64,000 bases of DNA from a virus, in the IMG/VR virus record IMGVR_UViG_3300027499_000005, positions 11,643 through 75,642 of that record; one strand, given 5' to 3'. Below, piece by piece: positions 145-17,994 of this stretch. Position 1 is the first letter of the stretch; each line of letters opens with the position of its first letter. The notes under the pieces were generated by a model, which had not been told where the DNA came from, made no database searches, and saw only the letters and a list, made by a program, of their open reading frames with translations. The position numbers and the translations under genes are program-made.

Positions 145-146
145 CA

Positions 147-353: not shown

Positions 354-355
354 AA

Positions 356-1247: not shown

Positions 1248-1263
1248 GCCTTATTTTTTATCG

Positions 1264-1340: not shown

Positions 1341-1362
1341 GCCACGACAGCGGAGGCAACGA

Positions 1363-1791: not shown

Positions 1792-1794
1792 ACA

Positions 1795-2148: not shown

Positions 2149-2179
2149 TCTATTTACTCAAAACCTATTTGGAGGCAAA

Positions 2180-2531: not shown

Positions 2532-2535
2532 ACTA

Positions 2536-2730: not shown

Positions 2731-2734
2731 ACCA

Positions 2735-2908
2735 ATGGAATTCCAAAAAGGCGATTTGGTTGCTATTGATGTTTCCGGTTGGTATCAAACAATCGGGATT
2801 GTTTTGGATGATGATCCTACACCTCGTCCTCACGGATTTACTGCCTTTGATCTTAAGAAACAAACAAAGTTATTTGTTCTTGTAAAAAACGCTAAAAAGA
2901 TCGCATAG
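2735..2908 (+). CDS. small SH3/KOW-like paralog (GDL family), 57 aa
   Basis: Read manually: MEFQKGDLVAIDVSGWYQTIGIVL...KKIA*; AGGA RBS. Confidence 0.75.
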   Translation: MEFQKGDLVAIDVSGWYQTIGIVLDDDPTPRPHGFTAFDLKKQTKLFVLVKNAKKIA

Positions 2909-2917
2909 GAAAACAAA

Positions 2918-3094
2918 ATGGAAATCAAACTTTACACCTTCCAAATGGGCGATTTGGTCCAATGCGGAAGCATCACCGGAATCGTCGTCAGGCATTATTT
3001 CGGTTGTAGTTCGTTAATGCCGATTGACTTTCGAAACATTGCAAATGGTTCGCTTTGCATGAGCCACGCCGAAAATCTCCAAAAACTTGGATGA
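2918..3094 (+). CDS. small SH3/KOW-like paralog (GDL family), 58 aa
   Basis: Read manually: MEIKLYTFQMGDLVQCGSITGIVV...QKLG*. Confidence 0.7.
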   Translation: MEIKLYTFQMGDLVQCGSITGIVVRHYFGCSSLMPIDFRNIANGSLCMSHAENLQKLG

Positions 3095-3098
3095 ATGG

Positions 3099-3302
3099 AT
3101 GAAATACCAAAAAGGTGATTTGATTAGATTCCAGTCGCACTACATGAGTGACGAGGAAAAAGGTCTTTTCTTGGTTATTGACTCCCACAAAACACAGGGA
3201 TACTATTGTTATTGTCTAAAAAGTGGACAACCGACAAAACAGTTAGAAGGAACTAGGGGATACCTTCCTTATTCTGTACCTTACGAAACATTCGAAATCT
3301 AA
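3099..3302 (+). CDS. small SH3/KOW-like paralog (GDL family)
   Basis: MKYQKGDLIRF... Confidence 0.8.
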   Translation: MKYQKGDLIRFQSHYMSDEEKGLFLVIDSHKTQGYYCYCLKSGQPTKQLEGTRGYLPYSVPYETFEI

Positions 3303-3318
3303 TAAAAGTAGGTGACTC

Positions 3319-3519
3319 ATGGCAATCTGTTATAAGTGTGGTGATGATTTCTCCGAAAAGAGGCTTTCCCTAGGTTACCGAACTTGCTTGGTTTGTGGCG
3401 ATAAGGAAGCAAATACCGAGGCAAATCGGCGGCGCAAGTGTGTCGCACCAGCCTACAATAAAGGTGCTTACATGTATGTTTCGAATGTATCTGATGCCAT
3501 GTTCGCTGGCAAAAAGTAA
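3319..3519 (+). CDS. C4 zinc-finger protein (DksA/TraR-type finger, no coiled coil)
   Basis: CYKCGDDFSEKRLSLGYRTCLVC matches the CxxC-x-RL-x-CxxC finger. Confidence 0.65.
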   Translation: MAICYKCGDDFSEKRLSLGYRTCLVCGDKEANTEANRRRKCVAPAYNKGAYMYVSNVSDAMFAGKK

Positions 3520-3524
3520 GTAAA

Positions 3525-3722
3525 ATGTTGGAACCTGTTTTCTACGAAATCTACAAAAAAGGAGATTTGGTCGAGATTTCTGCGATTTCTCCAAAAAGCA
3601 CCAAAATGTACGGAATCGTAAAATGCCTCAGTAGACACCACAAAAACTATTATCGAGTGAAAGTATTCGGCATTCATCGTGATGTTTTTGCTGGTGCCGA
3701 CCAAATGAGACGTATAACCTAG
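3525..3722 (+). CDS. small SH3/KOW-like paralog (GDL family)
   Basis: YKKGDLVEI...YGIVKCL. Confidence 0.7.
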   Translation: MLEPVFYEIYKKGDLVEISAISPKSTKMYGIVKCLSRHHKNYYRVKVFGIHRDVFAGADQMRRIT

Positions 3723-3756
3723 TTTTTTCTTTGCTGTCAAAAAAAGGTCAAGGCGT

Positions 3757-3785
3757 TTGACGGTGGCCGCTTGATCGGATAAGAT
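3757..3785 (+). promoter_or_regulatory. sigma70-type promoter
   Basis: TTGACG 3757, 17-nt spacer, TAAGAT 3780; in an intergenic gap upstream of ATG 3812. Confidence 0.7.
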
Positions 3786-3811
3786 GTGTAGGAAAGGGAG
3801 CGAGGACCAAA

Positions 3812-4039
3812 ATGGAAATCGGAACGCTTTGTCGGCTTTCTAACTGCAACATTTACGTTGCGACAGAATATCGAGGTTTGACCTTGGTTGTTCTAGAACA
3901 TCAAAAGTTCCAACCTCTCAAAATCCCCGGTTGTCAGGAAATCCCAAGTAGAACCATGCTTACTTGCTTTGTGGTCGAAAAGAACGAAAAAACCATGTTC
4001 TTTGACTATCAACTGAGCGATGCCGAGGTTCTAGGATGA
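3812..4039 (+). CDS. small hypothetical (GTL variant of SH3-like family), copy 1
   Basis: MEIGTLCRLS...CFVVEKNEKTMFFDYQLSDAEVL. Confidence 0.75.
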   Translation: MEIGTLCRLSNCNIYVATEYRGLTLVVLEHQKFQPLKIPGCQEIPSRTMLTCFVVEKNEKTMFFDYQLSDAEVLG

Positions 4040-4904: not shown

Positions 4905-5705
4905 ATGGCTTACAAGCGTACTATCTACTGTCGGGCTTGCGGTTCTGCCGGTCATAACCGCTCTTCCTGCCCCCGCGAAAAGGCGCGCATCGAAGAACTG
5001 CGGGCAAACCACGGTTCCGACCATTGGCAAGTTTCGTCCTATGATCGTAAGCGTATGCGCTCTAAGGAACGGGCTTGCTCGTACTGTCAGGAACAGGACC
5101 ATAATCGTGTTTCTTGCCCGACTATGAAGGCCGACATGGATAAGATTCGTCCGCACATTTCGGCGTACCGTAGGGCTTTCATCGATGCACTTTGCAAGAT
5201 TGGTATGGTTCCGGGTACCATTGCCGTGCATAATCACGGCCAAGGTATCCGTAACATGTACCTTGTTGAGCGTATCAACTTCGAAGAGATCGACCTGTTT
5301 CTTCCGAGCCGGAATCCCTGCGTTGTTCGCGGCCTTTCGGTGACGGGCTTTGACGATAGCGAAGATTATCGTCGTCGCTGGTACATCAACGATACTGGCC
5401 TTCTCGGCTTTGCCCTTGATTCTACGTCGGCAATCGGCTATGATAACACTCCGCGTTATGATGACGTTGTTGCGGCTGGTTGCGCTGATTCTTTCCGCGC
5501 CTCTGTTCCAAAGGATTGGTTGGAGGCTAAGAATCTTTGTAAGACTCATTTCTCTAACACTCGTCAGTCTCGCGGTCGCAACGCTAAGAACGGACAATGG
5601 CTGATTAACGAGGTGGAAAGTGGAGAGTTTAGCCGAAAGGCCGAAAACCTGCCTTCCAACGTCGATAGGTTCTTGGACTTTAGCGGGCAGAATCCCTATG
5701 CGTGA
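4905..5705 (+). CDS. double CCHC zinc-knuckle protein
   Basis: CRACGSAGHNRSSC and CSYCQEQDHNRVSC (Cx2Cx4Hx4C); GAGGA RBS. Confidence 0.75.
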   Translation: MAYKRTIYCRACGSAGHNRSSCPREKARIEELRANHGSDHWQVSSYDRKRMRSKERACSYCQEQDHNRVSCPTMKADMDKIRPHISAYRRAFIDALCKIGMVPGTIAVHNHGQGIRNMYLVERINFEEIDLFLPSRNPCVVRGLSVTGFDDSEDYRRRWYINDTGLLGFALDSTSAIGYDNTPRYDDVVAAGCADSFRASVPKDWLEAKNLCKTHFSNTRQSRGRNAKNGQWLINEVESGEFSRKAENLPSNVDRFLDFSGQNPYA

Positions 5706-5735
5706 GAAGCCTAGGGTTTTCCTCCCTTCTCGCTC

Positions 5736-5823
5736 TTGACAATCGCTTGACAAGAAAACGCTTGCGGCTGGCGACCGCCTAGGCTATAATGATGGGGTCA
5801 GCGGGCGATAGTGCCCGCTGGCC
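5736..5823 (+). promoter_or_regulatory. class I composite sigma70 promoter, copy 3
   Basis: TTGACA 5736, TTGACA 5747, TTGCGG 5762, 17-nt spacer, TATAAT 5785. Confidence 0.85.
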
Positions 5824-5851
5824 AAAAAAACCAAAAGATAGGAAGAACCTA

Positions 5852-6163
5852 ATGAACACGAATGACTGGCAGATTATCAAGGATGATGCGCGCTTTCTCG
5901 TCGTTGGCGGGCACGATGTTGACTTCGAACTTGATTCCTACGAGGAAGCGGCTTCCTTCCTTGACTTCATGAACGAGGACGAGACTCGTAAGGAAGATCC
6001 TGACTTTTTCTTCGATGAGTGGTGCTACCTGCACTTCGAACTCCGCGCGCCGTCTTTCGATGAAAACGAAACGAACGACGAGCAAAACGAAGGTTCCTCC
6101 GAAATCGATTTCGAAGCGGAACTTGGCGAGGTTCTTTCGTACCTCGGCGTTAGCACGGTCTGA
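5852..6163 (+). CDS. highly acidic small protein
   Basis: D/E-rich (MNTNDWQII...DENETNDEQNEGSSEIDFE); AGGAAG RBS. Confidence 0.7.
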   Translation: MNTNDWQIIKDDARFLVVGGHDVDFELDSYEEAASFLDFMNEDETRKEDPDFFFDEWCYLHFELRAPSFDENETNDEQNEGSSEIDFEAELGEVLSYLGVSTV

Positions 6164-6177
6164 AAAAGGTAGGAACA

Positions 6178-6255
6178 ATGCTCACAATCGCTAAGATTTT
6201 CTTTGCCCTTTGCATTTTCGACGTTGCCTTTAGACTCTGGAGAATGCCAGAATGA
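6178..6255 (+). CDS. 25-aa hydrophobic micropeptide
   Basis: MLTIAKIFFALCIFDVAFRLWRMPE; upstream AAGGTAGGAACA; stop overlaps the next ATG. Confidence 0.55.
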   Translation: MLTIAKIFFALCIFDVAFRLWRMPE

Positions 6256-6590
6256 ACCTAGACAATCCGAATCAAGAAACTCGCTTGGTTGTTTCTTGCC
6301 CTCCGGTTATGCTCGCTCCAAGGGACGGTTTCCGTTTGGCGGGTTGCTACGGTACTTGGATTAGTGTCCCGGCCCACACGAAAATCGAGGATCTTTCTCG
6401 TTACTTCATCGTTCGCCCCTATGGCGCACCCCCGCCGGAAAGCAGGGTAGAACCTAAGACTTTGACCGTCGCTGGTTCTCGCGGAGGAACCTACACCGTT
6501 CGACTGCGTGAAAACGGGCAAACAACCTGCACTTGTCCCGGCTTTGGTTACCGTCGCACTTGCAAGCATCTAACTCTTCTTTCGGCATAA
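6252..6590 (+). CDS. SWIM zinc-finger protein
   Basis: CTCPGFGYRRTCKH (CxC-x-CxH) at the C-terminus. Confidence 0.75.
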   Translation: MNLDNPNQETRLVVSCPPVMLAPRDGFRLAGCYGTWISVPAHTKIEDLSRYFIVRPYGAPPPESRVEPKTLTVAGSRGGTYTVRLRENGQTTCTCPGFGYRRTCKHLTLLSA

Positions 6591-6600
6591 GGTAGGAACA

Positions 6601-6672
6601 ATGGACACTTTCATCCTGTTCGTAGTTTTCGGCTTTTTCTCGTTGATGGCTTTCCTTAGCGTTCCCGAGTAA
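6601..6672 (+). CDS. 23-aa hydrophobic micropeptide
   Basis: MDTFILFVVFGFFSLMAFLSVPE; same upstream AAGGTAGGAACA as at 6178. Confidence 0.55.
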   Translation: MDTFILFVVFGFFSLMAFLSVPE

Positions 6673-6694
6673 GGTACAACCTAATCTTTCAGCC

Positions 6695-6775
6695 TTGACG
6701 AACGCTTGACAAATCGTGACTTGCGGACGCTCGCCGCCTAGGCTATAATGTACGGGTCGCTGGATGAACCAGCAC
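6695..6775 (+). promoter_or_regulatory. class I composite sigma70 promoter, copy 4
   Basis: TTGACG 6695, TTGACA 6706, TTGCGG 6721, 17-nt spacer, TATAAT 6744. Confidence 0.85.
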
Positions 6776-6793
6776 CACTAACGGAGTCAACGA

Positions 6794-7663
6794 ATGAACG
6801 CCAAGAATCGCAAGAACACCGAGAATACCCCGACGACCCGCCGCTTTCAGGCACTCTTCGATAGCGGGCTTTTGACCGACCGTGACCGCTCGTTCCTTGA
6901 TAGTCTGCTTTCTTCCTACAAGCGTTCGGGTTCGCTCACCGCTGGTCGCCGTCAAGCCTTGGAAAAGGTTGAGGCTCGCATCCAAGAAACGAGGAACAAC
7001 CCCGTTTCTGTCGATACCGCTACGGAAACGCGGCTCAATGGCCTTCTTTCGTCGGGTGCGTTGGATTCTTGGGCTACTACCTTTGTTTCCTCGCTCCTGT
7101 CGCAAGTGAAGGTTGGACGTACTCTTTCGGCTGCTCAAACTGCACACCTCGTCAAAATCGAAGGAAAGATCAAGGCTAACGCCGACTTTGCTTCGACCTA
7201 CGACGATGCCGCTCGTACCTTGTTTTCCAAGGCTGTCAACTACTACCGTTCTACCTCGTACTTCAGCGATGTTGTCGCTAAGCACGATTCGGACTCCTCT
7301 TTCGTCCCTCCTGCGATTGTTTTCGAGAAGATGACGAACAACCCCTACTTTCGGAAGGTTCTTGCTGCTATGGAAGAACCGGCAAAGTTCTCCGATGGGG
7401 ACATTGTGCGCCTTGGAACTTTGAGCGGGGAAAACGGGCGTTCGACTTGGGTCAGGATTAGGGAGGCTCGACGCGGCGATCTCGGCCAGTCGATGCACAC
7501 CTACGATAAGGCTGGTGCTACCGTCATTCGTGGCATGGTGCTGAAAAGCGAGGGAAATCCTGTCGTCTCGGCTGTCAAGGGCGGGAAGCAGTATTCGGTT
7601 CTCTTCTTTGGGGCTTCTACGCCGGTTTTGGTTGAGGAGCGTTGGCTTCGGCGTTCTAAGTGA
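6794..7663 (+). CDS. hypothetical protein (289 aa) with an internal repeat and a possible C-terminal SH3-like domain
   Basis: GGAG RBS; the segment FLDSLLSSYKRSGSLTAGRRQAL recurs as FVSSLLSQVKVGRTLSAAQTAHL; C-terminal FSDGDIVRL. Confidence 0.8.
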   Translation: MNAKNRKNTENTPTTRRFQALFDSGLLTDRDRSFLDSLLSSYKRSGSLTAGRRQALEKVEARIQETRNNPVSVDTATETRLNGLLSSGALDSWATTFVSSLLSQVKVGRTLSAAQTAHLVKIEGKIKANADFASTYDDAARTLFSKAVNYYRSTSYFSDVVAKHDSDSSFVPPAIVFEKMTNNPYFRKVLAAMEEPAKFSDGDIVRLGTLSGENGRSTWVRIREARRGDLGQSMHTYDKAGATVIRGMVLKSEGNPVVSAVKGGKQYSVLFFGASTPVLVEERWLRRSK

Positions 7664-7736
7664 ACAATCGCCAAATCGAACATTTTCGAACAAATGCGTT
7701 CGACGGCTTGACCGTCCGGCCCGGATGCGATAAGAT
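7662..7736 (+). promoter_or_regulatory. class II sigma70 promoter with TCGAACA upstream repeats
   Basis: TCGAACA at 7676 and 7686; TTGACC 7708, 17-nt spacer, TAAGAT 7731. Confidence 0.7.
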
Positions 7737-7775
7737 GTAGGGGTCGCTGATGATAGCGGCTAACGCGGGGTTCGC

Positions 7776-7853
7776 ATGGACAAGGCTCTTATGGTAGGTT
7801 CTCTCTCTCTTTCTCTTGTCTCTGGCTTCCTTTGCCTCTTTTGGGGCCTCTGA
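7776..7853 (+). CDS. 25-aa hydrophobic micropeptide
   Basis: MDKALMVGSLSLSLVSGFLCLFWGL; weak GGGG RBS. Confidence 0.45.
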   Translation: MDKALMVGSLSLSLVSGFLCLFWGL

Positions 7854-7887
7854 TTCACAAACCGACTAACTGATGAGGTATAACGTC

Positions 7888-8004
7888 ATGAACTTCACGA
7901 TCATCGCCATTTCCGGCTTTGTTTCTGCTCTTTCGGCTTTGGTGCTTGGCTCCATCGCTTTCGCAACCGTCGCCGAAATCGGCATTGTCCTTACCACCAT
8001 CTGA
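7888..8004 (+). CDS. 38-aa hydrophobic micropeptide
   Basis: MNFTIIAISGFVSALSALVLGSIAFATVAEIGIVLTTI; GAGG RBS. Confidence 0.55.
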   Translation: MNFTIIAISGFVSALSALVLGSIAFATVAEIGIVLTTI

Positions 8005-8017
8005 TAAGAGGGCTACA

Positions 8018-8104
8018 ATGGACCTTTTCGACCGTCTTTTCTTCACCGCTCTCGGCATGGCCGAGGTTGCTACTTTCGTCCTTGGCTTTGGAAGCATCTG
8101 CTGA
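8018..8104 (+). CDS. 28-aa hydrophobic micropeptide
   Basis: MDLFDRLFFTALGMAEVATFVLGFGSIC; GAGGG RBS. Confidence 0.55.
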   Translation: MDLFDRLFFTALGMAEVATFVLGFGSIC

Positions 8105-8134
8105 TAACCAAGGTCTAACCAACGTCAACGCGCC

Positions 8135-8230
8135 TTGACAATCGCTTGACAACTAAACGCTTGCGGACGACAACCGCCTAGGCTATAATGAATGGGTCAG
8201 CGGGTGATGGACACCCTACGGTCTGACTCA
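8135..8230 (+). promoter_or_regulatory. class I composite sigma70 promoter, copy 5
   Basis: TTGACA 8135, TTGACA 8146, TTGCGG 8161, 17-nt spacer, TATAAT 8184. Confidence 0.85.
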
Positions 8231-8290
8231 CGGGACAAACGGCAATGTCGCCGTCCCCATCCAAAACAACGTAGTTTCCGAGGTTCTAAC

Positions 8291-9448
8291 ATGGCTATCG
8301 ACTTCTCCACCGCTTCCAAGGCTCTTCCCTACGTCGCAGCGGCGCGTCATCCTATCCTTTGGCGCGGTCGTCACGGTATCGGCAAGTCTGAGGCTATCAA
8401 GGCTTTTGCCGCTTCTATCGGGCTTCCCATCGTTGAGCGTCGCGCCGCACAGTTGCAGGAAGGCGACCTTTTGGGGCTTCCTTCGCCCACTATGGTTGAG
8501 GTCAACGGCGTTGAGGCTGCACAGTTGCGCCCCTTCGCGTGGCTTATCAAGGCTTGCACCGAGCCTGTCGTTCTCTTTCTTGACGAGGTTGATCGCGGCA
8601 CTTCCGAGGTTCGTCAAGGTATCTTCCAACTTTGCGATTCTCGCACGGTTGGCGATTGGCGGCTTCACCCCGACACTATCATCGTTGCAGCCGTGAACGG
8701 CGGCGAGAATGCCTCCGAGTACCAAGTTGGCGAGATGGATCCTGCGGAGTTGGACCGCTACACGACTTTTGACGTTGCTCCGTCCGTTGACGATTGGCTT
8801 TCGTGGGCCGGTGGCGAGAACGATGCTTCGTCCGTTGCTTCTGCCTTCGCAGCCATTCGCTCGTCGGTTGACAGCCGCGATAAGTCCGGTTCGCCCATCG
8901 ATTCGCTGATTGTGGACTTCATTCGTCAGAATCCGTCGCACTTGGAACACCGCGATACCTTCGAGCCTAACAAGGTTTACCCGTCGCGCCGTTCTTGGAA
9001 GCGTCTGAGCGATACGCTGGTTGCAGGCCGTCTTTTGGACGATGCCAAGGCTAACCGTGGTCTTATCGCTTGCCTTACCACCGCATACGTCGGGTTGGAG
9101 GCTTCTGTCGCATTCTCCGACTTCGCGGCCAACTATGAGCGTCAGGTGACTGCCGAGGAGATTATCAATGCCGGAAAGTTGGCTCGCGTGGCCGACTTTG
9201 GCGTGGTCGAGCATACCGCGCTTGTCGGTAAGATGAAGGATTCGGGTATCTTCAAGAGCGTGCTTTCCCCTGCACAGTTGAAGAACTTGGCGAACTACAT
9301 CACTCTTCTTCCTTCCGAGGTTGCAATGGTGCTTTTCGCTCACATCCCTGTCGCTGGCGATACCGGTCCTGCGAACATCGGCGCACTCTACAAGACTAAG
9401 GCCGACAATGGCAAGACCGTGCGTGAGTTCATCGTGAGCCTCATGTGA
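8291..9448 (+). CDS. MoxR-type AAA+ ATPase
   Basis: Walker A GRHGIGKS, Walker B LFLDEVDR, MDPAELDRY and PSRRSW motifs; GAGG RBS. Confidence 0.9.
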   Translation: MAIDFSTASKALPYVAAARHPILWRGRHGIGKSEAIKAFAASIGLPIVERRAAQLQEGDLLGLPSPTMVEVNGVEAAQLRPFAWLIKACTEPVVLFLDEVDRGTSEVRQGIFQLCDSRTVGDWRLHPDTIIVAAVNGGENASEYQVGEMDPAELDRYTTFDVAPSVDDWLSWAGGENDASSVASAFAAIRSSVDSRDKSGSPIDSLIVDFIRQNPSHLEHRDTFEPNKVYPSRRSWKRLSDTLVAGRLLDDAKANRGLIACLTTAYVGLEASVAFSDFAANYERQVTAEEIINAGKLARVADFGVVEHTALVGKMKDSGIFKSVLSPAQLKNLANYITLLPSEVAMVLFAHIPVAGDTGPANIGALYKTKADNGKTVREFIVSLM

Positions 9449-9470
9449 TAAGCGGCGACCAACGCCCACT

Positions 9471-9501
9471 AAGCCCAGCCTAACCCGCTGGGCTTTCTTT
9501 T
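9471..9501 (+). terminator. intrinsic terminator
   Basis: AAGCCCAGC-N7-GCTGGGCTT followed by TCTTTT. Confidence 0.85.
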
Positions 9502-9550
9502 ATCCACGTTCTTCCTCGATAGTACTACGCTTGTCAGAACCCGAGTTTAG

Positions 9551-9990
9551 CAAGGAGATAGCTGGTCTTTCGGGTACCAACGGAGAGGCATCTAGCAGCC
9601 GTTCTGAGCGAGCCTAGACGCTAGGGCTACCGTGAGCCACCTAGGCCACCCTAACGCGCTCCTAGAGCCGTTCTAGCCCGTCCTGCGGCGGTTCCCGCCC
9701 TAGCCTTGACGCTCGCCGTTCTAGCCGCTGGACGTTGACGCCGCCACCGACGACTGATAACTATTCAGGATCTACCTTGCATAGAACCAAGCCCTCTAGG
9801 ACTGCAAACTGCAAAGGATAAAGCCTGACTTTGGAGTACCAACGGAGAGGCGTCTGACAGACGTTTGGAGCGATCCTCGACGCTAGGGCTATCATGAGTC
9901 ACCCGAGCGTCTAGGGCGTCTGCTAGGGCCGTCTGAGAGCGTTTTATAACGTGTCCTGCGGTTGTTCGGGCTAGCCGTCAACCTCGCCAC
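9551..9990. repeat. imperfect direct repeat (period 262 bp) in a CTAG-rich non-coding spacer
   Basis: 68-nt cores at 9574 and 9836 match at 57/68 positions; 13 CTAG sites in 9592-9974. Confidence 0.85.
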
Positions 9991-10090
9991 CGAGCCAGCA
10001 GCACCAATGGAGCAACGCCGATTTTCAGGGTTCACAAACGCTTGACAACCCCTTTGCTCGTCCACCTAAACCAAAGACAAGGAAGGAAGG

Positions 10091-10166
10091 GAACAATAAC
10101 CAAATCGAACAACTTCGAACAATCGCTCCCGGCTTCCTTGACGCTGCGAGCGTAGCCGGTTACATT
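10091..10166 (+). promoter_or_regulatory. class II sigma70 promoter with TCGAACA upstream repeats
   Basis: TCGAACA at 10105 and 10115; TTGACG 10138, 17-nt spacer, TACATT 10161. Confidence 0.7.
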
Positions 10167-10226
10167 ATGGGGGACGGTAATCCTTCCGTTATTCGCGGCT
10201 CAACCAAACAACCAAGGTACAAACTG

Positions 10227-11528
10227 ATGACCGCAACTTCTCCTGCTCCTATGCCGACTTTCGACATGAACCTGCACATTCACAAACTCATGCTGAAAGA
10301 GCCGTTTTTCGCCGCTATTTCGCGACGCATGAACAAGGTCGCTACTACCTCCATTCCTACCGCTGGCGTCCGTGTCAACCCCGATTCGCTCGCGTTGGAA
10401 ATGGCTTACAACCCTGCTTTCTTCAACCGGCTTGTGGCGGAACACGCTGATTTTGTCGGTTCTATGAAGGTTAAGGAACGCAAGGCTTACGCTTCTGCTC
10501 ACCCCGGCGATAATGGCGAGGTTGATCCTTACGTTTGGGTGCGTGGCGTCCTGTTGCATGAGTTGTATCACATTGTCTTTGGTCACATTACCGAGCGTTT
10601 GCCCGATGGTACCATGACTAAGAAGTGGAACCATGCGACGGACCTTGCTATCAATAGCAACCTTCAAGGTCAACTTCCGTCGTACTGCCTCATGCCCGGT
10701 GTTGGCGAATACGCTGATTTGCCCCTTGGCAAGTCGGCTGAGTTCTATTTCCGTTCCATCGTGGACCCCGAGGAGAAAAGCAAGGATCAAAGCCAACAAG
10801 GTCAAGGTCAGCAGGGTCAAGGTGATGGTCAAAATGAAGGTCAAATCGATGACCATTCCGGTTGGGGCGACCTTCCCGACGACGTAAAGGACGCTGCAAA
10901 GGAAGCAATGCGTCAGATTACGGAGCAAGCGGTCAATGAGGCAAACGGCAACTCGCAAGGTTGGGGGTCGGTTTCTGCTTCTATGCGTGAAAAGATCCTT
11001 GATTCTATCCGTGTCAAGGTTAACTGGCGCGCACACTTGCGTTATTTCGTAAAGACCTCGATGAAGGCCGATAAGCGCACTTCTATCTTCCGTATCAATA
11101 AGCGGTTTCAGTACGTTCATCCGGGAAAGAAGGCTAGCCGTACTGCTAAGATTGCAATCTCTATCGACCAGTCGGGTTCGGTGGATGATGGGCTTCTTAC
11201 TGCCTTTTTCTCGCAACTGGATTCCCTCGCTCAGATTGCGGAGTTCACGGTTGTTCCCTTTGATACTCACGTTGACGATTCCAAGGTTTACGTTTGGAAG
11301 AAGGGCCAACATCGCAAGGTTGAACGTGTGCTTTGCGGTGGCACCGACTTCAATGCGCCCACCAAGTGGGTCAATGAACGCAACTTTGATGGTCACATCA
11401 TTTTGACCGATTTGGAGGCCCCTATTCCGGTGTCCAGTAAGTGTCAGCGTATGTGGATGACGGATAAGTCCTGCTACAACCGTCGTTCCTTCAACATCAA
11501 TGAGCGAATCATCGTTATCGAAGGATAA
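10227..11528 (+). CDS. metallopeptidase-like + vWA domain protein (DUF2201-type MoxR partner)
   Basis: LLHELYH (HExxH), WNHATDLAINS, Q/G-rich linker, MIDAS IDQSGSV, GGTDF, ILTDL. Confidence 0.88.
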   Translation: MTATSPAPMPTFDMNLHIHKLMLKEPFFAAISRRMNKVATTSIPTAGVRVNPDSLALEMAYNPAFFNRLVAEHADFVGSMKVKERKAYASAHPGDNGEVDPYVWVRGVLLHELYHIVFGHITERLPDGTMTKKWNHATDLAINSNLQGQLPSYCLMPGVGEYADLPLGKSAEFYFRSIVDPEEKSKDQSQQGQGQQGQGDGQNEGQIDDHSGWGDLPDDVKDAAKEAMRQITEQAVNEANGNSQGWGSVSASMREKILDSIRVKVNWRAHLRYFVKTSMKADKRTSIFRINKRFQYVHPGKKASRTAKIAISIDQSGSVDDGLLTAFFSQLDSLAQIAEFTVVPFDTHVDDSKVYVWKKGQHRKVERVLCGGTDFNAPTKWVNERNFDGHIILTDLEAPIPVSSKCQRMWMTDKSCYNRRSFNINERIIVIEG

Positions 11529-11582
11529 CGGTGGTTCCCTCGTTTTCGAAGAGGCAACATTGCGACAATCAAGGGCAAAACT

Positions 11583-11798
11583 ATGAGGTATAAGAAAGGC
11601 ACCTTGCTCCGTGGTATCTCAAACGAGTATACTGAAAACTTCGTTTTGATCGAGAGTTACGGAATGCATAAGTCAGACGTTTCCGGTAATGAAGCACCAA
11701 TCTATCATTTTTTTATCTTGGATGAAAACATGAAACGAGATTGGCACTACGCTACCTACGTTGAGTCAGATAACGTCTTTGTTCAGGTTGTACCATGA
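11583..11798 (+). CDS. SH3/KOW-like array gene 1
   Basis: MRYKKGTLL... Confidence 0.75.
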   Translation: MRYKKGTLLRGISNEYTENFVLIESYGMHKSDVSGNEAPIYHFFILDENMKRDWHYATYVESDNVFVQVVP

Positions 11799-12010
11799 CT
11801 TCTCCTAGGTTTGAGCCAAATGATTTGGTAAAACTCCAAGAATGTGTTGCAGATAAGAGATCCGTCGAGAGACTAGGAACAAAGGTGTTTATGGTCATTC
11901 AGCATGGAACGGAACAAAACGAGAATCTATGCCTGCTTCGAACAATCGGAGGACCGTATGATGGAAAGACCAAGATGATTCACTATTCTTTACTAACCCA
12001 CATCGAATAA
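11795..12010 (+). CDS. SH3/KOW-like array gene 2
   Basis: PRFEPNDLVKL; ATGA overlap. Confidence 0.75.
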   Translation: MTSPRFEPNDLVKLQECVADKRSVERLGTKVFMVIQHGTEQNENLCLLRTIGGPYDGKTKMIHYSLLTHIE

Positions 12011-12031
12011 ACGAAAGCCAAGGTTGAAAGC

Positions 12032-12214
12032 ATGAAATACGAAGTTGGCGATTTGGTTGCATGGAACTACAAAGAAGGCAAAGATGATTACTTCATCATT
12101 ACAGGCATTAGCACGGATGAAATGACGTACTGGCTCAGATACATTGATAGTGGAAAGGAAACATTCGAACCAACCTCAACTTTTTTCGAAGAAGCCACAA
12201 GCAAGATAGGATAA
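12032..12214 (+). CDS. SH3/KOW-like array gene 3
   Basis: MKYEVGDLV...YIDSGK...SKIG*. Confidence 0.8.
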   Translation: MKYEVGDLVAWNYKEGKDDYFIITGISTDEMTYWLRYIDSGKETFEPTSTFFEEATSKIG

Positions 12215-12217
12215 GCA

Positions 12218-12430
12218 ATGCGAAGGCAGAACAGCCGAAAGCCCAGGTTCAAGGTCGGTGATTTGCTCTACGGGGAGCCGCACCATGCGCCTGAGGGACG
12301 CTACATCATCATTACCAAGGTTGAATCTAGGTCTACCAACAGCCTTTATCATTTTCGCGAAATAGCCAATAATAAGAGTGTTTATTGGCTTTGTTCGGAC
12401 ATTGAGCGAACCTACGAAATGATAGGATGA
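12218..12430 (+). CDS. SH3/KOW-like array gene 4
   Basis: PRFKVGDLL...EMIG*. Confidence 0.8.
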   Translation: MRRQNSRKPRFKVGDLLYGEPHHAPEGRYIIITKVESRSTNSLYHFREIANNKSVYWLCSDIERTYEMIG

Positions 12431-12434
12431 ACGG

Positions 12435-12647
12435 ATGAAATACCAAAAAGGCGACATTGTAAAGTGGAGCGATTATGCCTTCGATCCCAAAGAAAACATC
12501 ATGATCGTTAACGAGGTTGTACCCATTGATTCTATCAGCCGATCCGGCACGGAACAATACTATTACAGATACACATACCTTGAAACAGGAAGGCAAGATT
12601 CGTACATGGGTACCCTCTACGAAAGCGACACCTTTCTAATGGCATAA
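12435..12647 (+). CDS. SH3/KOW-like array gene 5
   Basis: MKYQKGDIV...YLETGR. Confidence 0.8.
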   Translation: MKYQKGDIVKWSDYAFDPKENIMIVNEVVPIDSISRSGTEQYYYRYTYLETGRQDSYMGTLYESDTFLMA

Positions 12648-12662
12648 ACCAAGGAACAAAGC

Positions 12663-12866
12663 ATGAAATACCAAGTCGGTGATTTGCTTTTTGTAGAAGC
12701 AGGAAGTTGGCTTCCCAAAACTCCCGAAGAATTTTACATTGTCAAGTGCATTGATCACAGCGACGACGAAGAAGAATACTCTTACATTCTTCACAGCATA
12801 ACACACAGCGAAACAGAATACATAAACAAGCATTGGGTTGAGCGTTGGTGTAATAAGGTAGGTTGA
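12663..12866 (+). CDS. SH3/KOW-like array gene 6
   Basis: MKYQVGDLL...NKVG*. Confidence 0.8.
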   Translation: MKYQVGDLLFVEAGSWLPKTPEEFYIVKCIDHSDDEEEYSYILHSITHSETEYINKHWVERWCNKVG

Positions 12867-12869
12867 ACC

Positions 12870-13064
12870 ATGAGTTTTCAGAAGGGCGATCTTCTTTACA
12901 TTCCAGAATTGAGGAAATACCCAGCAGAATACGTTTTGATTATTGAGGCAAATATGCTGGAAGGCACTTTTGCCGGTTCATATTCCGTTTTCAGCCTAAC
13001 AGAAAACAGGAAAGATTATTATAACGCCGAATGGCTGGACAACAAAGCAAAGAAGATAGGATGA
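12870..13064 (+). CDS. SH3/KOW-like array gene 7
   Basis: MSFQKGDLL...KKIG*. Confidence 0.8.
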   Translation: MSFQKGDLLYIPELRKYPAEYVLIIEANMLEGTFAGSYSVFSLTENRKDYYNAEWLDNKAKKIG

Positions 13065-13068
13065 AAGC

Positions 13069-13266
13069 ATGAAATATCAAATTGGCGATTTGGTGAAATA
13101 CAGAGACGACATTCTAATCATAACGGGAGTTGTTTCTTACAAAGGCGACCCTACCTATGCTGAGTTTTATTACACCTACACAAACATTACCACAACCATA
13201 CATCATCTAAAACGAGGCAAGTATACAGAAAATTTCTTGGATCTTATGAGTGAAAAGATAGGATGA
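13069..13266 (+). CDS. SH3/KOW-like array gene 8
   Basis: MKYQIGDLV...EKIG*. Confidence 0.8.
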   Translation: MKYQIGDLVKYRDDILIITGVVSYKGDPTYAEFYYTYTNITTTIHHLKRGKYTENFLDLMSEKIG

Positions 13267-13270
13267 AAGT

Positions 13271-13477
13271 ATGAAATATCAAAAAGGCGATTTGCTAATG
13301 TGGATCGATGATAACGTCATTATCAGAGACAACTACAAAGAAAGATACATGATAATAATCCAGCATGATATAATCAAAAGCGGCGGAGGTTATTATACCT
13401 ATCGCTACATTGATACAGGAAGGAAAGATGGATACATCGATCAACTCTTGGAACAAGCAACGCAAAAGGTAGGATGA
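13271..13477 (+). CDS. SH3/KOW-like array gene 9
   Basis: MKYQKGDLL...YIDTGR...QKVG*. Confidence 0.8.
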   Translation: MKYQKGDLLMWIDDNVIIRDNYKERYMIIIQHDIIKSGGGYYTYRYIDTGRKDGYIDQLLEQATQKVG

Positions 13478-13481
13478 ACGG

Positions 13482-13703
13482 ATGAAATACCAAAAGGGGG
13501 ATTTGATCGAGATTATCGAAAACATTCCCGGATTGTTCCCTTACAAGGGTCTTGCCCTTATTGTGCGAGCAGTAAAGGTTGATACTATGGGCGGAATTTA
13601 CTATTTCCGTCGTTTGAGTAAGATCGCCCAGGATGATTTTGTGGAAGGTAGTTATTGGGGCCAGTTCATCGATGATCCCGAATATGTGAGGATGATCCAA
13701 TGA
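13482..13703 (+). CDS. SH3/KOW-like array gene 10
   Basis: MKYQKGDLIEI...GLALIVRAV. Confidence 0.8.
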   Translation: MKYQKGDLIEIIENIPGLFPYKGLALIVRAVKVDTMGGIYYFRRLSKIAQDDFVEGSYWGQFIDDPEYVRMIQ

Positions 13704-13915
13704 GATACCAAAAGGGCGACTTGGTTATTTGGAAGCATGAAGTTCTCAAACCCGCCAAAGGCAACGAAAGAATCATGATCGTCACAAATGCAAAAAGCAG
13801 CACAACCAAATACGGCTTTGGCATTTATGAATACATGTATTTGGAAACAGGAAGAACAGATCATTATGTTGATCACTCTTACGAATCCGACACAAAACTT
13901 TTGGAAGAACAATGA
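13700..13915 (+). CDS. SH3/KOW-like array gene 11
   Basis: MRYQKGDLV...YLETGR; ATGA overlap. Confidence 0.8.
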   Translation: MRYQKGDLVIWKHEVLKPAKGNERIMIVTNAKSSTTKYGFGIYEYMYLETGRTDHYVDHSYESDTKLLEEQ

Positions 13916-14118
13916 AATACCAAAAGGGCGATCTTGTAAGGTTCAAAGAACCCAGCCGATCTAACTTACCAGAACGCATTATGCTTATTACAAGCATCAT
14001 TGATGAAGTATATACGATTCCCTACGGCGAAGGCTACAAATACAGGTTTCTCGATTCAGGTAGAGAAGAAATGTGTACCAAAGCCACTTTTGAGAAGATA
14101 ACCGAAATGATAGGTTGA
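13912..14118 (+). CDS. SH3/KOW-like array gene 12
   Basis: MKYQKGDLV...FLDSGR...EMIG*. Confidence 0.8.
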   Translation: MKYQKGDLVRFKEPSRSNLPERIMLITSIIDEVYTIPYGEGYKYRFLDSGREEMCTKATFEKITEMIG

Positions 14119-14214
14119 ACGACAAACATTCCCCCATAAAAACCCACATTCCCCCACAATCCCCCATAATGCCCATCCAAACATAACAAGACAAGATACA
14201 GACAAAGAACCCCG

Positions 14215-14257
14215 AATCCTGCCCCGAACGATCCATCCGTTCGCGGCGGGATTTTTT
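14215..14257 (+). terminator. intrinsic terminator closing the early array
   Basis: AATCCTGCC/GGCGGGATT outer stem plus CGAACG/CGTTCG inner stem, then a T-run. Confidence 0.8.
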
Positions 14258-14699
14258 CATTTCACCGACAGCAATAACCAATAATGACCATTCATCCAAA
14301 CCTTTTCGGCATTACAAAATAGAATAATAAACATTGGATAAGCCAGTAAATACCAATGTTCTCTTCTTATACTTCTAATACAACAATAACGACCGCAAAT
14401 AAATAACCATTACACCTACCCTTCGCTTGGCTATTCTAATAACTGTTGTATAACGTCAGCAATAATCCATTATTCTCTGTGAGGGTGGGCCAACCTACTG
14501 TATTGGTGTCTGCTCTTAGTACCACCACAAAGCCCAAATAACAAGCATTTAAAGCCACTCACAGCAAAGCCTGCTAGTTACAGGCTTCTCTGCTATTCGC
14601 TACCACTTCATTGTGAGGTTCTTTGATCCTATGTTATCTACTATCCAGCTCTTGGATGGCTCCTATCGGCTTGTGAGAAAGCTTCTAAGCACTCTTTCA

Positions 14700-15015
14700 G
14701 GTACCGTTTTATCTACCACCTAGAGAAAGTGTAATCAAATGATACTGGTGCTTTATCCTCGCTGTCAACGGAAGAACAGAGAATGCAGTAGCTATCAGCA
14801 TTCTCTGGCTAATGGGCATTGTAAGTCCCTCACAACGGTATGCTTTAGGATACCTGAAAGGAGTGTTTCGACTTGTACTATTCTATCTTCACCTAGAGCA
14901 AAGTGAATAAAACAATAATAGTGCTTGTAAGCCCCTCACAGCGAATACGGCGATAACATAGGCGCTATCAATGTTCTCTCGATAATGGGCTTCTAAAGCG
15001 CCTCACAACGGCCAT
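14700..15015. repeat. imperfect tandem duplication (period about 173 bp) in the non-coding boundary
   Basis: 48-nt copies at 14791-14838 and 14964-15011 (37/48 identical); CACCTAGAG(C)AAAGTG near 14717 and 14890. Confidence 0.8.
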
Positions 15016-15386
15016 CCCCAAATGCCCCCAAAGGTATTCAGTTTTCTCTAGGTGCTAACAGAACTATCACCAATACCTAAATAACAAAGGTCAAAGGATT
15101 CCTTTCAGAAGCCTCCGAAAATGACTGTCTTTTAAAAGTCGATGTTCTTCGAAACTACCTTATCAGGGTACCCCCTCCCCCTCCCCTCCTCTGTGAGCCA
15201 GGTTGTAAGTACCATAGGGGGAAACCGGTTTTTTGCGGGCCTAATACACTCGCACAACCCCAAGAAAAAATGAGAGATTTAAGAAGAGGCTCCAAGCATG
15301 GCTCCCTGTTATTCCCGAAAAAACAAATGACCTTTCAAAAGGCAGGTTGGCAAAAAAATCCCAAGGGAAAAATGTGAGATTTTTTG

Positions 15387-15396
15387 ACTATTTATT
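15387..15396 (+). promoter_or_regulatory. putative phage late promoter motif ACTATTTATT
   Basis: Intergenic, 22 nt upstream of ATG 15419; the motif recurs before many late genes. Confidence 0.7.
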
Positions 15397-15418
15397 GGTG
15401 AACCATAAGGGAAAAAAT

Positions 15419-16930
15419 ATGAGATTTTCAGTAAGCGAATTTCGGGATATCATCAAGGAGGAAATCACAAGGGTATTGGATGAAGCAACAGCCGATCCTT
15501 CAGGACAAGATGAGCAAGGCTCTTTCAGACTTCCACCAATCAAGATTGCAGAAACTTGGGGTCGTCTGGAGAATGGTGACCGCGAGCGTTTATGGCGTTT
15601 TGCCAAGAATCTGCAAGGTGAAACTCTAGAAGCCAAAATTACACAAATTAACAAGTATCTCACAGCCCCGGCCAAAGGTGCAGATGTAAACGAGATTTTG
15701 TCTGTAATGATGATTACAGAAATTCTATCTAACATCCTTACAGACTTTACCGAGTCTGCCGCTGGCTTCATTTTTGAAGCTTTCTTAGCTGGTTTGTTCG
15801 GCAAAGATTCAGTCCAAATCGTAGACGTTGAAGGCGTCGAAGACGAGGACGATTCACAAGGCGAAGGTCAAAAAGGCAAGCCAATTACCGACGTTGTTTT
15901 AGGCGGAAAGCATTACTCCCTAAAGCTACTCAAAGCCAAAGGAATGTTGGATCCAAATACAGGTAAAAGGTCAGCAGGAACTCAAGTTAAAGGTTCTTGG
16001 AGAAACATGTTAAGCCACCTTTTGAGCCAACCAGAGGTAACTTATCTTGATGTTAGAAAAGAGGCTACTGGTCAGCAACTTTCGTTTGGCGAAGTCACTG
16101 TCAAACTAGAAAACTTGTATAAAATCTTTATTGATCCATTCTTGCAACCAGTTGCTAAAGGCAAAGCAGTAACTATTAAAGACGTAGATCAGTTTATCGA
16201 TCTTGTTATCAATCAGGCCAAAAATGATCTATTTATTGGAAGATCTGTGGTTGAATTGAAACCAAACCTTCCAGATGAAACTGAAGAATTCGTGAGACAA
16301 TACGCAAAGAGACGCCCCGGACCATTACAAGAAGATTTGAGTCCAAATGAGAGACAGTTTACATTTGATGATTTTGCAGACATGGCCAATAGCGACCCAG
16401 AGGTTCTAAGAGATAAATTTGAAGATGTAAAATTCCCAACCGATATGAAGTATCGCCCACTAAGTCAAGCTCCAATTCTATTCAGAATGTTTGGAGGTCC
16501 AGATAACATGCGTAAATTCTATGACCTATCCAAGCAATACGAAGAAAATCCAAGTCAGGAAACAAGAGCAGCGTTATTCGACATGATTAAAAAGCTGCCA
16601 GATGTTGTTGGCAAAGTTCAATTCGCATTCAGCCAAAAACAATTTGAAAGCATTTCTGAATTTAGACACATTGGCTCTTTGAACCTCGAAGAAGGCAGTC
16701 TAAAACAACTATGGCTACAGAACGCTCAATTACTAGAACAAACAATCGCACCTGTTTACCGTGCATTTGACGATTTCAGCAATAGCATAGAAAACTACTT
16801 TACATCAGGCCAAGGGGATTTCGGACGCAAAGCATACGGTGACAAAGCCATTACATCCTCCGCAGACTTAAACAAAACCACGACAGCAGCCGTTACAAAG
16901 ATGGAAGCTGCCCGCGACCAAAACAAGTAA
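15419..16930 (+). CDS. putative head-internal protein with PD-(D/E)xK-like nuclease motifs
   Basis: N-terminal EFRDIIKEE motif; GFIFEAFLAGL...KPITDVVLGGKHYSLKLL (E...D...SxK); AAGGG RBS supports ATG 15419. Confidence 0.5.
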   Translation: MRFSVSEFRDIIKEEITRVLDEATADPSGQDEQGSFRLPPIKIAETWGRLENGDRERLWRFAKNLQGETLEAKITQINKYLTAPAKGADVNEILSVMMITEILSNILTDFTESAAGFIFEAFLAGLFGKDSVQIVDVEGVEDEDDSQGEGQKGKPITDVVLGGKHYSLKLLKAKGMLDPNTGKRSAGTQVKGSWRNMLSHLLSQPEVTYLDVRKEATGQQLSFGEVTVKLENLYKIFIDPFLQPVAKGKAVTIKDVDQFIDLVINQAKNDLFIGRSVVELKPNLPDETEEFVRQYAKRRPGPLQEDLSPNERQFTFDDFADMANSDPEVLRDKFEDVKFPTDMKYRPLSQAPILFRMFGGPDNMRKFYDLSKQYEENPSQETRAALFDMIKKLPDVVGKVQFAFSQKQFESISEFRHIGSLNLEEGSLKQLWLQNAQLLEQTIAPVYRAFDDFSNSIENYFTSGQGDFGRKAYGDKAITSSADLNKTTTAAVTKMEAARDQNK

Positions 16931-16939
16931 TCGCCTCTT

Positions 16940-16975
16940 GACGCCCTGTTCTTTTGAGCAGGGCGTCTTTGTTTT
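16940..16975 (+). terminator. intrinsic terminator
   Basis: GACGCCCTGTTC-TTTT-GAGCAGGGCGTC then TTTGTTTT. Confidence 0.85.
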
Positions 16976-16982
16976 CAAAATG

Positions 16983-16992
16983 ACTATTTATT
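16983..16992 (+). promoter_or_regulatory. putative late promoter ACTATTTATT
   Basis: Directly after the terminator, 15 nt before ATG 17008. Confidence 0.75.
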
Positions 16993-17007
16993 GGGCGAGG
17001 TTCAATA

Positions 17008-17994
17008 ATGTATTCGTCGTTTAAGAAGCACCAACTCATAACCGAATCGTGGAGAAGGTTTCTTCTTGAAGCATCCGAAGAAGAGAAGAAGCATTTTGGT
17101 GATTGGATTGATGAAGAATTTCTTGATCAATTTCAAAAATATATATACGAAAAATCCCAAGATTATTACCTCGAAGAAGTTCCAACAGATAAGCTTAAGT
17201 TTATTGGGCAAGGTTCTTTCCGAGGAGTCTATCGTCCAAAGGGCGATAAGGATTATGTTGTTAAGTTTGCTCTTGGTGACGACGGCAGAGAAATGAATAA
17301 AACGGAATTTGAATTCCAAACCAAAAACGATTTATTTGCAAAAGTGTTTAAACATTCAGATGATTTTTCTTGGATTGTTATGGAATCTTTGAGAACAATT
17401 AAAAAGAATTCAGTTTTTAACGACTTCTTTCCGGAAATTGCAAGCATGTTTAACCAACTTGGAATGGAATGGCAGACCCACAGGTTTATAACAGAAACAG
17501 TTTTTGGTCCCTTGAAGGTTAATAATCAAAGCGGTGCTTTGTCCCAAAGCTCCCCAAGCGCATCCGGTTGGGATATTGCTTATAAGGATGTTATTATCGC
17601 TGCGTTCCATAGATCAGCATATCTTGACTCTCCTGAATTTCAGGATAAGATTCTTGTTCCTGGGTTGGAGGAATTGAGGAAAAAAATCGAATCAGAAGGC
17701 GATCCAGAAAAGCTGAATGAGTTTATGGAAATGCAAAAAAGTTTGTTTGATAAAAAACAATCCATTTCAATCAGAAAAGAACAAAGATTTAAATTATTAT
17801 TTTCAACCCTTGAAAAAATCCTTGAACAAAGACTTATTCAGTTTTGCATCAGCTTTCCTCTTGTTCAAAGAATAAGAAGGGTCATCAAAGACTTTGGACT
17901 TCTTCATTCAGAGATAAGAGTGCTTAATACCGGTGTTAACTCAAAAGGAGAATTCAAAATCTTGGATGCTTCGGTTGAAGAACAAATAGGATAA
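17008..17994 (+). CDS. atypical protein-kinase-like protein
   Basis: G-loop GQGSFRGVY, VVKFA lysine, helix-C Glu, hinge IVMESL, catalytic-loop HSEIRVLN, KILDAS. Confidence 0.65.
   Translation: MYSSFKKHQLITESWRRFLLEASEEEKKHFGDWIDEEFLDQFQKYIYEKSQDYYLEEVPTDKLKFIGQGSFRGVYRPKGDKDYVVKFALGDDGREMNKTEFEFQTKNDLFAKVFKHSDDFSWIVMESLRTIKKNSVFNDFFPEIASMFNQLGMEWQTHRFITETVFGPLKVNNQSGALSQSSPSASGWDIAYKDVIIAAFHRSAYLDSPEFQDKILVPGLEELRKKIESEGDPEKLNEFMEMQKSLFDKKQSISIRKEQRFKLLFSTLEKILEQRLIQFCISFPLVQRIRRVIKDFGLLHSEIRVLNTGVNSKGEFKILDASVEEQIG

Follow-up and report, generated by a model that had tools for sequence, protein, structure and literature searches.

A tandem array of small genes modelled as SH3/Tudor-like barrels varies by whole units among T4-type freshwater phages

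In a stretch of 64,000 nucleotides (nt) from the IMG/VR virus record IMGVR_UViG_3300027499_000005 (positions 11,643–75,642 of the record; the whole stretch is hereafter called the window), an array of 12 back-to-back genes was found on the plus strand (11583–14118). Their products are 60–73 amino acids (aa) long, and the start-to-start spacing across the 12 units is 186–237 nt, with a mean of 211.7 nt. The twelve open reading frames (ORFs) were thus located where an earlier inspection of the DNA without database searches (the sequence-only reading) had placed them. Six of the intergenic gaps are 3–4 nt long, one is 15 nt and one is 21 nt; at 11795, 13700 and 13912 the genes overlap by 4 nt (ATGA), i.e., the gap is -4 nt. 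Read-through or fusion of the units was ruled out, since the frames differ between successive units and the start-to-start spacings are not multiples of three. The source record is 147 kb long with an estimated completeness of 81%, and one of its relatives is a 175-kb contig. The record encodes a Gp23-type capsid protein (PF07068, 195 bits), a Gp20-type portal protein (PF07230, 264 bits) and RecA/UvsX (PF00154, 115 bits), all over the cut-offs, which allows us to assign the phage to the T4-type myoviruses. The host genome of the array is that of an uncultured freshwater T4-type myovirus of ~175 kb, in which the array occupies a plastic region. The stretch is held by sixteen studies, mostly of freshwater, and the phage is known solely from metagenomes.

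The alignment of the twelve proteins revealed a MKYQKGDL/V start, a hydrophobic strand, an invariant-like Tyr and a K-I/V-G end; the median aa identity between the paralogs of the window is 24%. Family membership was evaluated using a profile of all other cassette types, each unit being scored with its own type left out (Z=1000), and 11 of the 12 units were recognised with E values from 6e-8 to 6e-19. Unit 1 (11583–11798; 71 aa; E 1.9e-9) is a divergent family member with an ATGA overlap with unit 2. Unit 2 (11795–12010; 71 aa) is kept in relatives and is the one unit not recognised by the profile; its own AlphaFold2 model was uninformative (predicted local distance difference test, pLDDT, of 47). 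Unit 3 (12032–12214; 60 aa; E 1.3e-11) and unit 4 (12218–12430; 70 aa; E 4.9e-9) end in KIG and MIG, respectively. Unit 4 has an N-terminal extension and an isoelectric point of 9.5, that of most units being 4.3–6.8 (acidic to neutral). Unit 5 (12435–12647; 70 aa; E 2.4e-18) is the final unit of a left block that is constant in the window's own lineage. Unit 6 (12663–12866; 67 aa) represents a cassette type shared, at 97.5% nt identity, with a lineage whose DUF2201 protein, encoded next to the array, is 54% identical. Between it and unit 7 (12870–13064; 64 aa), one or two additional cassettes are present in relatives. Units 8 (13069–13266; 65 aa; E 1.4e-9) and 9 (13271–13477; 68 aa; E 7.9e-18) are followed by unit 10 (13482–13703; 73 aa), which is missing from the relative L011, lies behind unit 6 in L008 and L009 and has a 95% nt match in a lineage designated X. 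Unit 11 (13700–13915; 71 aa) was chosen for modelling; an SH3/Tudor-like barrel of five strands is predicted for it, followed by a short helix at the C-terminus. The last gene, unit 12 (13912–14118; 68 aa; E 2e-16), retains a junction stub, GATAGGTTGAACG, at 14109–14121 with no gene after it, as had been described. The motif Y-x-Y-L/I-D/E-T/S-G-R/K, which had been noticed in several cores, was found in five units (3, 5, 9, 11 and 12).

The units are joined by a junction of ~40 nt that consists of K-I/V-G codons, a stop, a Shine-Dalgarno sequence and MKYQKGDL codons. The example at 13255–13297 (plus strand) comprises K-I-G codons, TGA, the AGGA Shine-Dalgarno sequence and MKYQKGDL codons, and equivalents are present at every unit boundary from unit 3 on; the four junction strings quoted in the sequence-only reading were located at 13255, 13053, 13466 and 12419. 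In the common design, AGGA is positioned 7 nt 5' of the next ATG and sits within the last two sense codons (ATA/GTA, then GGA/GGT) and TGA. The junction therefore does serve as gene end, Shine-Dalgarno sequence and next start at once, as had been proposed, with AGGA lying within the terminal codons of the preceding gene. The spacing also fits the proposed translational coupling, although we infer the coupling as such. To compute the conservation of the junction, 38 cassette types found in the window and in relatives were compared, each by a single representative. Pairwise nt identity per position was ~0.5–0.9 over about -16 to +27 of the ATG vs 0.28 in the cores, in agreement with the claim of conserved junctions between divergent cores. 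In the first eight codons, third positions were clearly less conserved than first and second positions. Since the third codon positions drift, the junction is conserved as protein ends and a ribosome-binding site and not as an independent DNA element, and DNA-level homogenisation was ruled out for the same reason. The junction would thus be held by protein and translation constraints, which recombination merely exploits. Exact identity between junctions is mostly 8–17 nt, with a maximum of 26 nt.

Modelling of unit 11 using AlphaFold2 with 52 family sequences led to a model with a pLDDT of 88.3 and a predicted template modelling score of 0.76. Five strands (residues 8–11, 25–32, 42–47, 53–57 and 65–67) and a short C-terminal helix were predicted, the strands forming a strongly bent antiparallel barrel of ~60 residues of the SH3/Tudor-like class. 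The conserved scaffold of the model includes strand 1 (KGDLV), the hydrophobic strand 2, Tyr43 and the C-terminal helix ending in K-I/V-G. Variation in sequence and length is concentrated in model residues 12–24 and 33–41, which are the positions of the SH3 RT and n-Src loops. All structural neighbours of the model were barrels of the SH3, Tudor, chromo, KOW or CarD type, with Foldseek template modelling (TM) scores of 0.5–0.74. The Foldseek search against the PDB gave E ~0.1 and TM ~0.57, the AlphaFold cluster matches had E values from 0.013, and the BFVD matches were small uncharacterised phage proteins with TM up to 0.74. Atlas look-alikes of the fold were R67 DHFR, SH3-C_UBE2O and DUF4314. 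The small SH3-like beta-barrel expected by the sequence-only reading was thus borne out by a confident model with barrel-only neighbours. The units model as members of the SH3/Tudor-like barrel fold class, an assignment that concerns the fold class and not common descent with any named superfamily.

No Pfam family, including KOW (PF00467) and SH3_15, exceeded its threshold for any of the 12 units, and neither a tblastn search of the units against 50,697 deposited phages nor a single-protein scan of IMG/VR returned anything useful. A profile search of 5.8 billion proteins revealed 38 small hypothetical proteins. The exhaustive profile search of 1.84 billion representatives revealed 74 clusters only, containing small hypothetical proteins and a few multi-repeat proteins; SH3_15/KOW matches were seen only in a few distant multi-repeat proteins caught by the family profile. 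These low numbers of matches indicate that the family is small and lineage-restricted. In the representative library, the protein P0064 (174 aa) was found to be a natural two-unit fusion that starts with MKYQKGDLV, contains a start-like motif (K-K-A-D-I-V) mid-way and ends in EMIG, which means that units can also fuse.

For the comparison with relatives, all of which are metagenome contigs, units were typed by identity and those of the window were lettered A to L. Phages with flanks 93–99.7% identical carry 3, 12, 13, 14 or 15 units, and all differences between them are whole-unit differences. Four contigs with flanks 97.5–99.7% identical to the window illustrate this. The order is A B C D E F G H I J K L in the window and A B C D E F T Q G H I K L in L011, where T and Q are inserted and J is absent. 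In L010, the order is A B C D E F Q V G H I J K Y, with Q and V inserted and L replaced by Y. In L008 and L009, it is A B C D E F' J Q V G H I W K U, where F' is a different variant of F, J has moved, Q, V and W are added and U replaces L. Another four contigs (L023 to L026; flanks ~93% identical) have three units only, directly followed by the post-array sequence; the existence of such natural three-unit forms implies that most of the array is dispensable. The same architectures were obtained from independent samples and assemblers: L008 (Logan) equals L009 (ENA), the three-unit array occurs in four contigs, and L017 to L019 agree.

The indels found through blastn are exactly as long as one unit (218 nt) or two units (394 nt and 406 nt), measured from start to start, and three-way comparisons mapped each crossover to the interval from about -20 to +25 relative to a start codon. 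The surviving unit of L023 consists of the first seven codons of unit C and then unit E, which results in the chimeric start MKYEVGD/IVKW (the slash marks the crossover). At the I/K boundary of L011, the parent switch is between the Shine-Dalgarno sequence and the ATG, and the F/G boundary of the window arose within C-terminal codons common to F and V. Recombination within the junction deletes, inserts or moves one or more whole genes, always leaving intact, correctly expressed genes. The 12 genes and their order are not constant among the relatives, which have arrays of 3–15 units with exact loss, gain and relocation of whole units. The idea that the array expands and contracts via junction homology holds as regards the whole-unit changes and the crossovers inside the junction, but no sign of recent in-situ expansion was seen. 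In two DNA runs, the Logan contigs cover the DUF2201 gene and units A–E without a break and are shattered thereafter, with uneven depth and several alternative joins at junctions. Such shattering fits co-existing variants, the co-existence of which contigs cannot prove.

Arrays at the same locus, syntenic on both sides, were found in two further backbone lineages (X and Z). The DUF2201 protein of the window lineage (W) is 77% identical (aa) to that of lineage X, and its identity to that of lineage Z is 54% (aa) and 60% (nt). Nevertheless, five cassette types are 95–99.5% nt identical between W and Z, and for one type the identity between W and X is 95%. Cassettes that are so similar despite DUF2201 proteins of 54% identity must have moved between lineages. 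The unit order of lineage Z is the same in several independent assemblies (L015 to L019), so it does not come from one chimeric contig. Within each array, all units are of different types, with a median aa identity of 20–24% and a maximum of 59%. Since no type occurs twice per array and identity does not exceed 59%, growth proceeds by acquiring old cassettes and not by fresh local duplication, and shrinkage by junction deletion. The ratio of nonsynonymous to synonymous substitution rates (dN/dS) of orthologous cassettes is mostly 0.13–0.74, which corresponds to purifying selection, and hypermutation or strong diversifying selection was rejected overall on this basis. For loop 2 and the C-terminal part, pooled counts hint at relaxed or diversifying change, with a ratio of nonsynonymous to synonymous polymorphism (pN/pS) exceeding 1, a value that comes from 11–12 synonymous changes and non-independent pairs. 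The locus is a case of shuffling of old paralogs and not of hypermutation or recent amplification. The cores had earlier been called hypervariable, a description that was not upheld: the paralogs are old (median 24% aa identity), and each cassette type is conserved between genomes under the dN/dS values given above.

Tandem paralog arrays the copy number of which differs between isolates are also known from the multigene families of asfarviruses and from the K3L amplification of poxviruses, where they are linked to host range and counter-defence. The phage array resembles these gene accordions in its variable number of tandem paralogs. Accordions, however, arise by recent amplification of one gene, and the phage array does not contain two similar copies; near-identical tandem copies were not found, the within-array identity having the median and maximum given above.

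The array is directly preceded by the DUF2201 gene (10167–11528, plus strand; DUF2201_N and DUF2201, metallopeptidase-like and VWA-like, Pfam 3.9e-14 and 2.1e-11). In four of four backbone lineages, this gene flanks the array on the left as a conserved anchor; it is syntenic in L008–L027 and is probably the first gene of the array operon. A promoter-like site was found before it at 10138–10166, and a strong intrinsic terminator closing the operon (14214–14260, plus strand; fold -24.6 kcal/mol, z -4.9, then a U run) begins ~95 nt after the array end. Over 9400–15600, promoter-like and terminator-like sites were not above shuffled expectation, and terminator-like sites were not found inside the array. 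No tRNA or Rfam family was found in or near the array. The whole array would be one co-transcribed, translationally coupled operon read from the promoter before the DUF2201 gene. Transcription is weakly supported by two metatranscriptome runs, in which short contigs of low depth map to several units and to the DUF2201 gene. Between the last unit and the terminator (14126–14175), C-rich short direct repeats (ACATTCCCCCA-like, three copies) are located, which are kept in three-unit relatives (L025).

Taken as a whole, the data are probably best explained by a cassette-shuffled family of small SH3/Tudor-like genes in a T4-type plastic region. The common boundary of ~40 nt between neighbouring genes is the site of recombination, and the phage's own RecA/UvsX-type system would perform the exchanges during co-infection. 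The proteins may be dispensable early accessory proteins. Their most likely role, for which we see roughly even chances, is that each unit, as a small protein, binds its own host factor in counter-defence or host takeover, the content of the array tracking the hosts met; the sequence-only reading had likewise proposed binders (anti-defence, host-takeover or decoy proteins). According to the model, the two variable loops could be the recognition surface.

The closest known process was described for T4-type phages by Arbiol et al. (2010) (PMC2839356). Elements named PeSLs, each combining a strong early promoter with a terminator of the stem-loop type, are non-coding, flank unrelated ORFans and insulate each transcriptionally; mini-circle intermediates were shown for them, and homology patches of <50 bp were reported to be sufficient for T4-type recombination (PMC2839356). 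Like the PeSL loci, the array is located in a plastic region of small non-essential ORFs of a T4-type phage, and near-identical phages differ by insertion, deletion or replacement of whole ORFs. In both systems, crossovers fall in short conserved gene-boundary sequences, and a part of them map to the stretch from the Shine-Dalgarno sequence to the start codon. A dedicated recombinase is not known for either, and the general recombination of the phage is invoked. PeSL-type shuffling as a process was thus found here, with whole-ORF differences and boundary crossovers. The PeSL element itself, a sigma-70-like early promoter with a stem-loop between ORFs, was not: the gaps are -4 to +21 nt and no terminator-like site is present inside the array. 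Unlike PeSLs, the linker of the array is made of the coding ends of paralogs and a ribosome-binding site, and the units, which would be on one transcript, belong to one protein family. Tandem families of small barrels are common in phages, and linker-mediated shuffling in T4 plastic regions is already known; the coding junction and the single protein family are new here.

The array is an unusually clean natural record of the shuffling of phage accessory genes, with a single family and boundary design, a dozen architectures and crossovers that could be mapped, and its cassettes were exchanged between phages with core genes only about half identical. It indicates that the 'linker' of classical modular theory can be coding sequence, so that recombination always gives intact, translationally coupled genes. 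If the proteins are binders of host factors, phage–host matching in lakes could be read from the array as a compact marker, and the array would also supply small scaffolds for binding. A more far-reaching version, which we regard as tentative and rather doubtful, is an integrase-free cassette library: a pool of some 40–75 SH3-like binder cassettes would circulate among diverged T4-type freshwater phages, the carried set would decide which host strains and defences are overcome, and the RT-like and n-Src-like loops would serve as recognition surfaces. If true, this library would be the natural counterpart of engineered SH3 or Sso7d binder scaffolds.

Several observations weigh against the cassette-shuffling explanation. 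Because all relatives are metagenome contigs and the Logan contigs fragment exactly in the variable half of the array, some architectures could contain assembly joins; notably, L014 has one extra cassette and derives from a sample in which a window-like phage is present as well. With exact junction identity as short as 8–17 nt (26 nt at most), recombination there must be rare per infection. The structural matches are weak (best Z 7.3, Foldseek E 0.004–0.1), as is usual for any small barrel; the units have no Pfam, PHROG or PDB sequence match, and unit 2 (11795–12010) did not match the leave-one-type-out profile. The RNA evidence is thin (depth 2–5, without a control on a silent stretch), and the 'early' timing is read solely from sigma-70-like promoter matches.

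The structural neighbours raise the question of whether the proteins are Tudor-like binders of RNA polymerase (RNAP), each tuned to a host RNAP variant or promoter class. The three best neighbours bind the RNAP beta subunit: in the VIA-align comparison (Z range 5.4–7.3), these were the CarD N-domain (Z 7.3), the UvrD C-terminal Tudor domain (with RNAP lobe; Z 7.1) and the PcrA Tudor domain (Z 6.8), followed by the VapX antitoxin (Z 6.6), and the RNAP-interacting domain of Mfd was also among the neighbours. Z values below 8 are, however, within the range of unrelated small barrels, the sequence identity is 8–14%, and 12–20 different binders of one highly conserved target are hard to explain. 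This role therefore seems improbable to us, and the RNAP-binding Tudor-like neighbours, being neighbours of a model, serve as a lead only.

The leaders of T4 internal proteins (IPs) end in Glu, after which they are cut by the prohead protease. The IPs of T-even phages are unrelated beyond the leader, are packaged and injected and have their own promoter element each, and at least one of them has an adaptive or defensive role. The units of the array could be packaged proteins of this kind, with the N-terminus as a capsid-targeting leader, injected with the DNA to block host restriction. The T4-type nature of the phage and the common N-terminal motif beginning MKYQ would agree with this, and T-even IP loci are likewise highly variable, with >30 variants and flanking repeats thought to drive shuffling (PMC2839356). 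These loci are small and polymorphic, and the number, order and identity of their genes vary between close relatives. The loci (Repoila et al. 1994, cited via PMC2839356) were described as a case analogous to PeSL shuffling (PMC2839356). The array and the IP loci are thus alike as small polymorphic gene sets with a conserved N-terminal motif in their products. In the array, however, this motif is modelled as barrel strand 1 with pLDDT 95, i.e., as a structural strand of the common fold and not as a detachable leader. No leader motif ending in Glu was seen after the conserved start, packaging is not indicated, and the array operon with its sigma-70-like promoter matches is far from the head genes (near 111–120 kb of the record). 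We hold the packaged-protein explanation to be unlikely.

Quite unlikely, too, is that the unit-level variation is an artefact of short-read assembly across a repeat-like array, the real phages carrying one fixed old tandem family. From about 12690 on, the Logan contigs are in pieces of 135–500 nt with uneven depth and many alternative joins at junctions, and L014 and L013 are from one sample, as an artefact would predict. But identical architectures recur across samples and assemblers (L008 and L009; L023 to L026; L017 to L019), and the exact identity of junctions, at most 26 bases, is below the final k-mers of the assemblers. Moreover, the reading frame is intact at every recombinant boundary, crossover points vary between events, and both the fragmentation and the ~2x backbone depth of some cassettes are expected from co-existing variants.

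In integrons, attC sites lie between the cassettes and the integrase gene intI is adjacent. The array resembles them in its ordered promoterless single-gene cassettes, which would be read from one upstream promoter, in whole-cassette differences and in a pool common to different replicons; unlike integrons, its spacers leave no room for attC, no integrase was seen near the locus, and its cassettes, all of them paralogs, are exchanged via short homologous stretches of coding sequence. That a site-specific enzyme uses the junction as its dedicated site, either integron-like (an attC-like site with an integrase) or as the target of a homing-type nuclease, is very improbable. The cassette-like architecture with its uniform boundary design, the stub kept after the last unit and the movement of cassettes between diverged genomes would suit it, but a structured site of the attC type does not fit into spacers of -4 to +21 nt, the junction drifts at third codon positions, crossovers are at differing points (Shine-Dalgarno sequence to ATG, codons 1–8, C-terminal codons), no integrase-like gene was seen in the annotated neighbourhood (AAA ATPase, DUF2201), though no genome-wide integrase search was made, and the phage encodes the general recombinase RecA/UvsX, T4-type recombination being reported to need only small homology patches (PMC2839356).

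Upstream of the array and the DUF2201 gene, a MoxR-type AAA ATPase gene is located (8192–9448). A functional link between the array and the MoxR/DUF2201 pair was considered and is unsupported, as distant and cultured phages have this gene pair without the array. In 80 IMG/VR relatives (L030–L109; DUF2201 protein 44–52% identical), only 0–3 scattered weak family matches each were found. These relatives form a large phage clade, with many genomes of ~185–190 kb and many of marine origin, which share the DUF2201 gene and lack the array. The array is specific to the sub-clade of the window phage.

The family extends beyond the array. At least eight more distant members were found at 147–3722 of the window, so that the early region contains at least 20 such genes. 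At 2283–3302 (plus strand), ~5 consecutive distant members form a second, looser mini-array with a boundary composed of an end-KIG/KLG stop, a Shine-Dalgarno sequence and M..KGDL, as judged by profile matches and sequence. Additional distant members were revealed by profile matches at 147–1247 and 3525–3722. Two adjacent paralogous genes (1364–1791 and 1795–2148) encode W-Y-L-N-G-K-L-H-R-E-D-G-P-A-like repeats that by eye are MORN-like. The G+C content of the large genes at 5000–11000 is 51–57% vs 39–45% in both small-gene clusters (1–4000 and 11600–14100) and the rest of the window.

Differences between relatives were also seen on the right side of the array. The 904 bp post-array sequence at 14337–15240 is reversed at the end of the 175-kb ENA contig (L009, 8783–9686) and colinear in the Logan contig L008; the reversed stretch is either an assembly artefact of the contig end or an invertible or terminal segment. 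Two genes encoding proteins of 527 aa and 328 aa, which follow a gene-free boundary in the window (15347–17994), are missing from L008 (6567–7847), which is otherwise 98–100% identical. This is another whole-gene indel beside the array.

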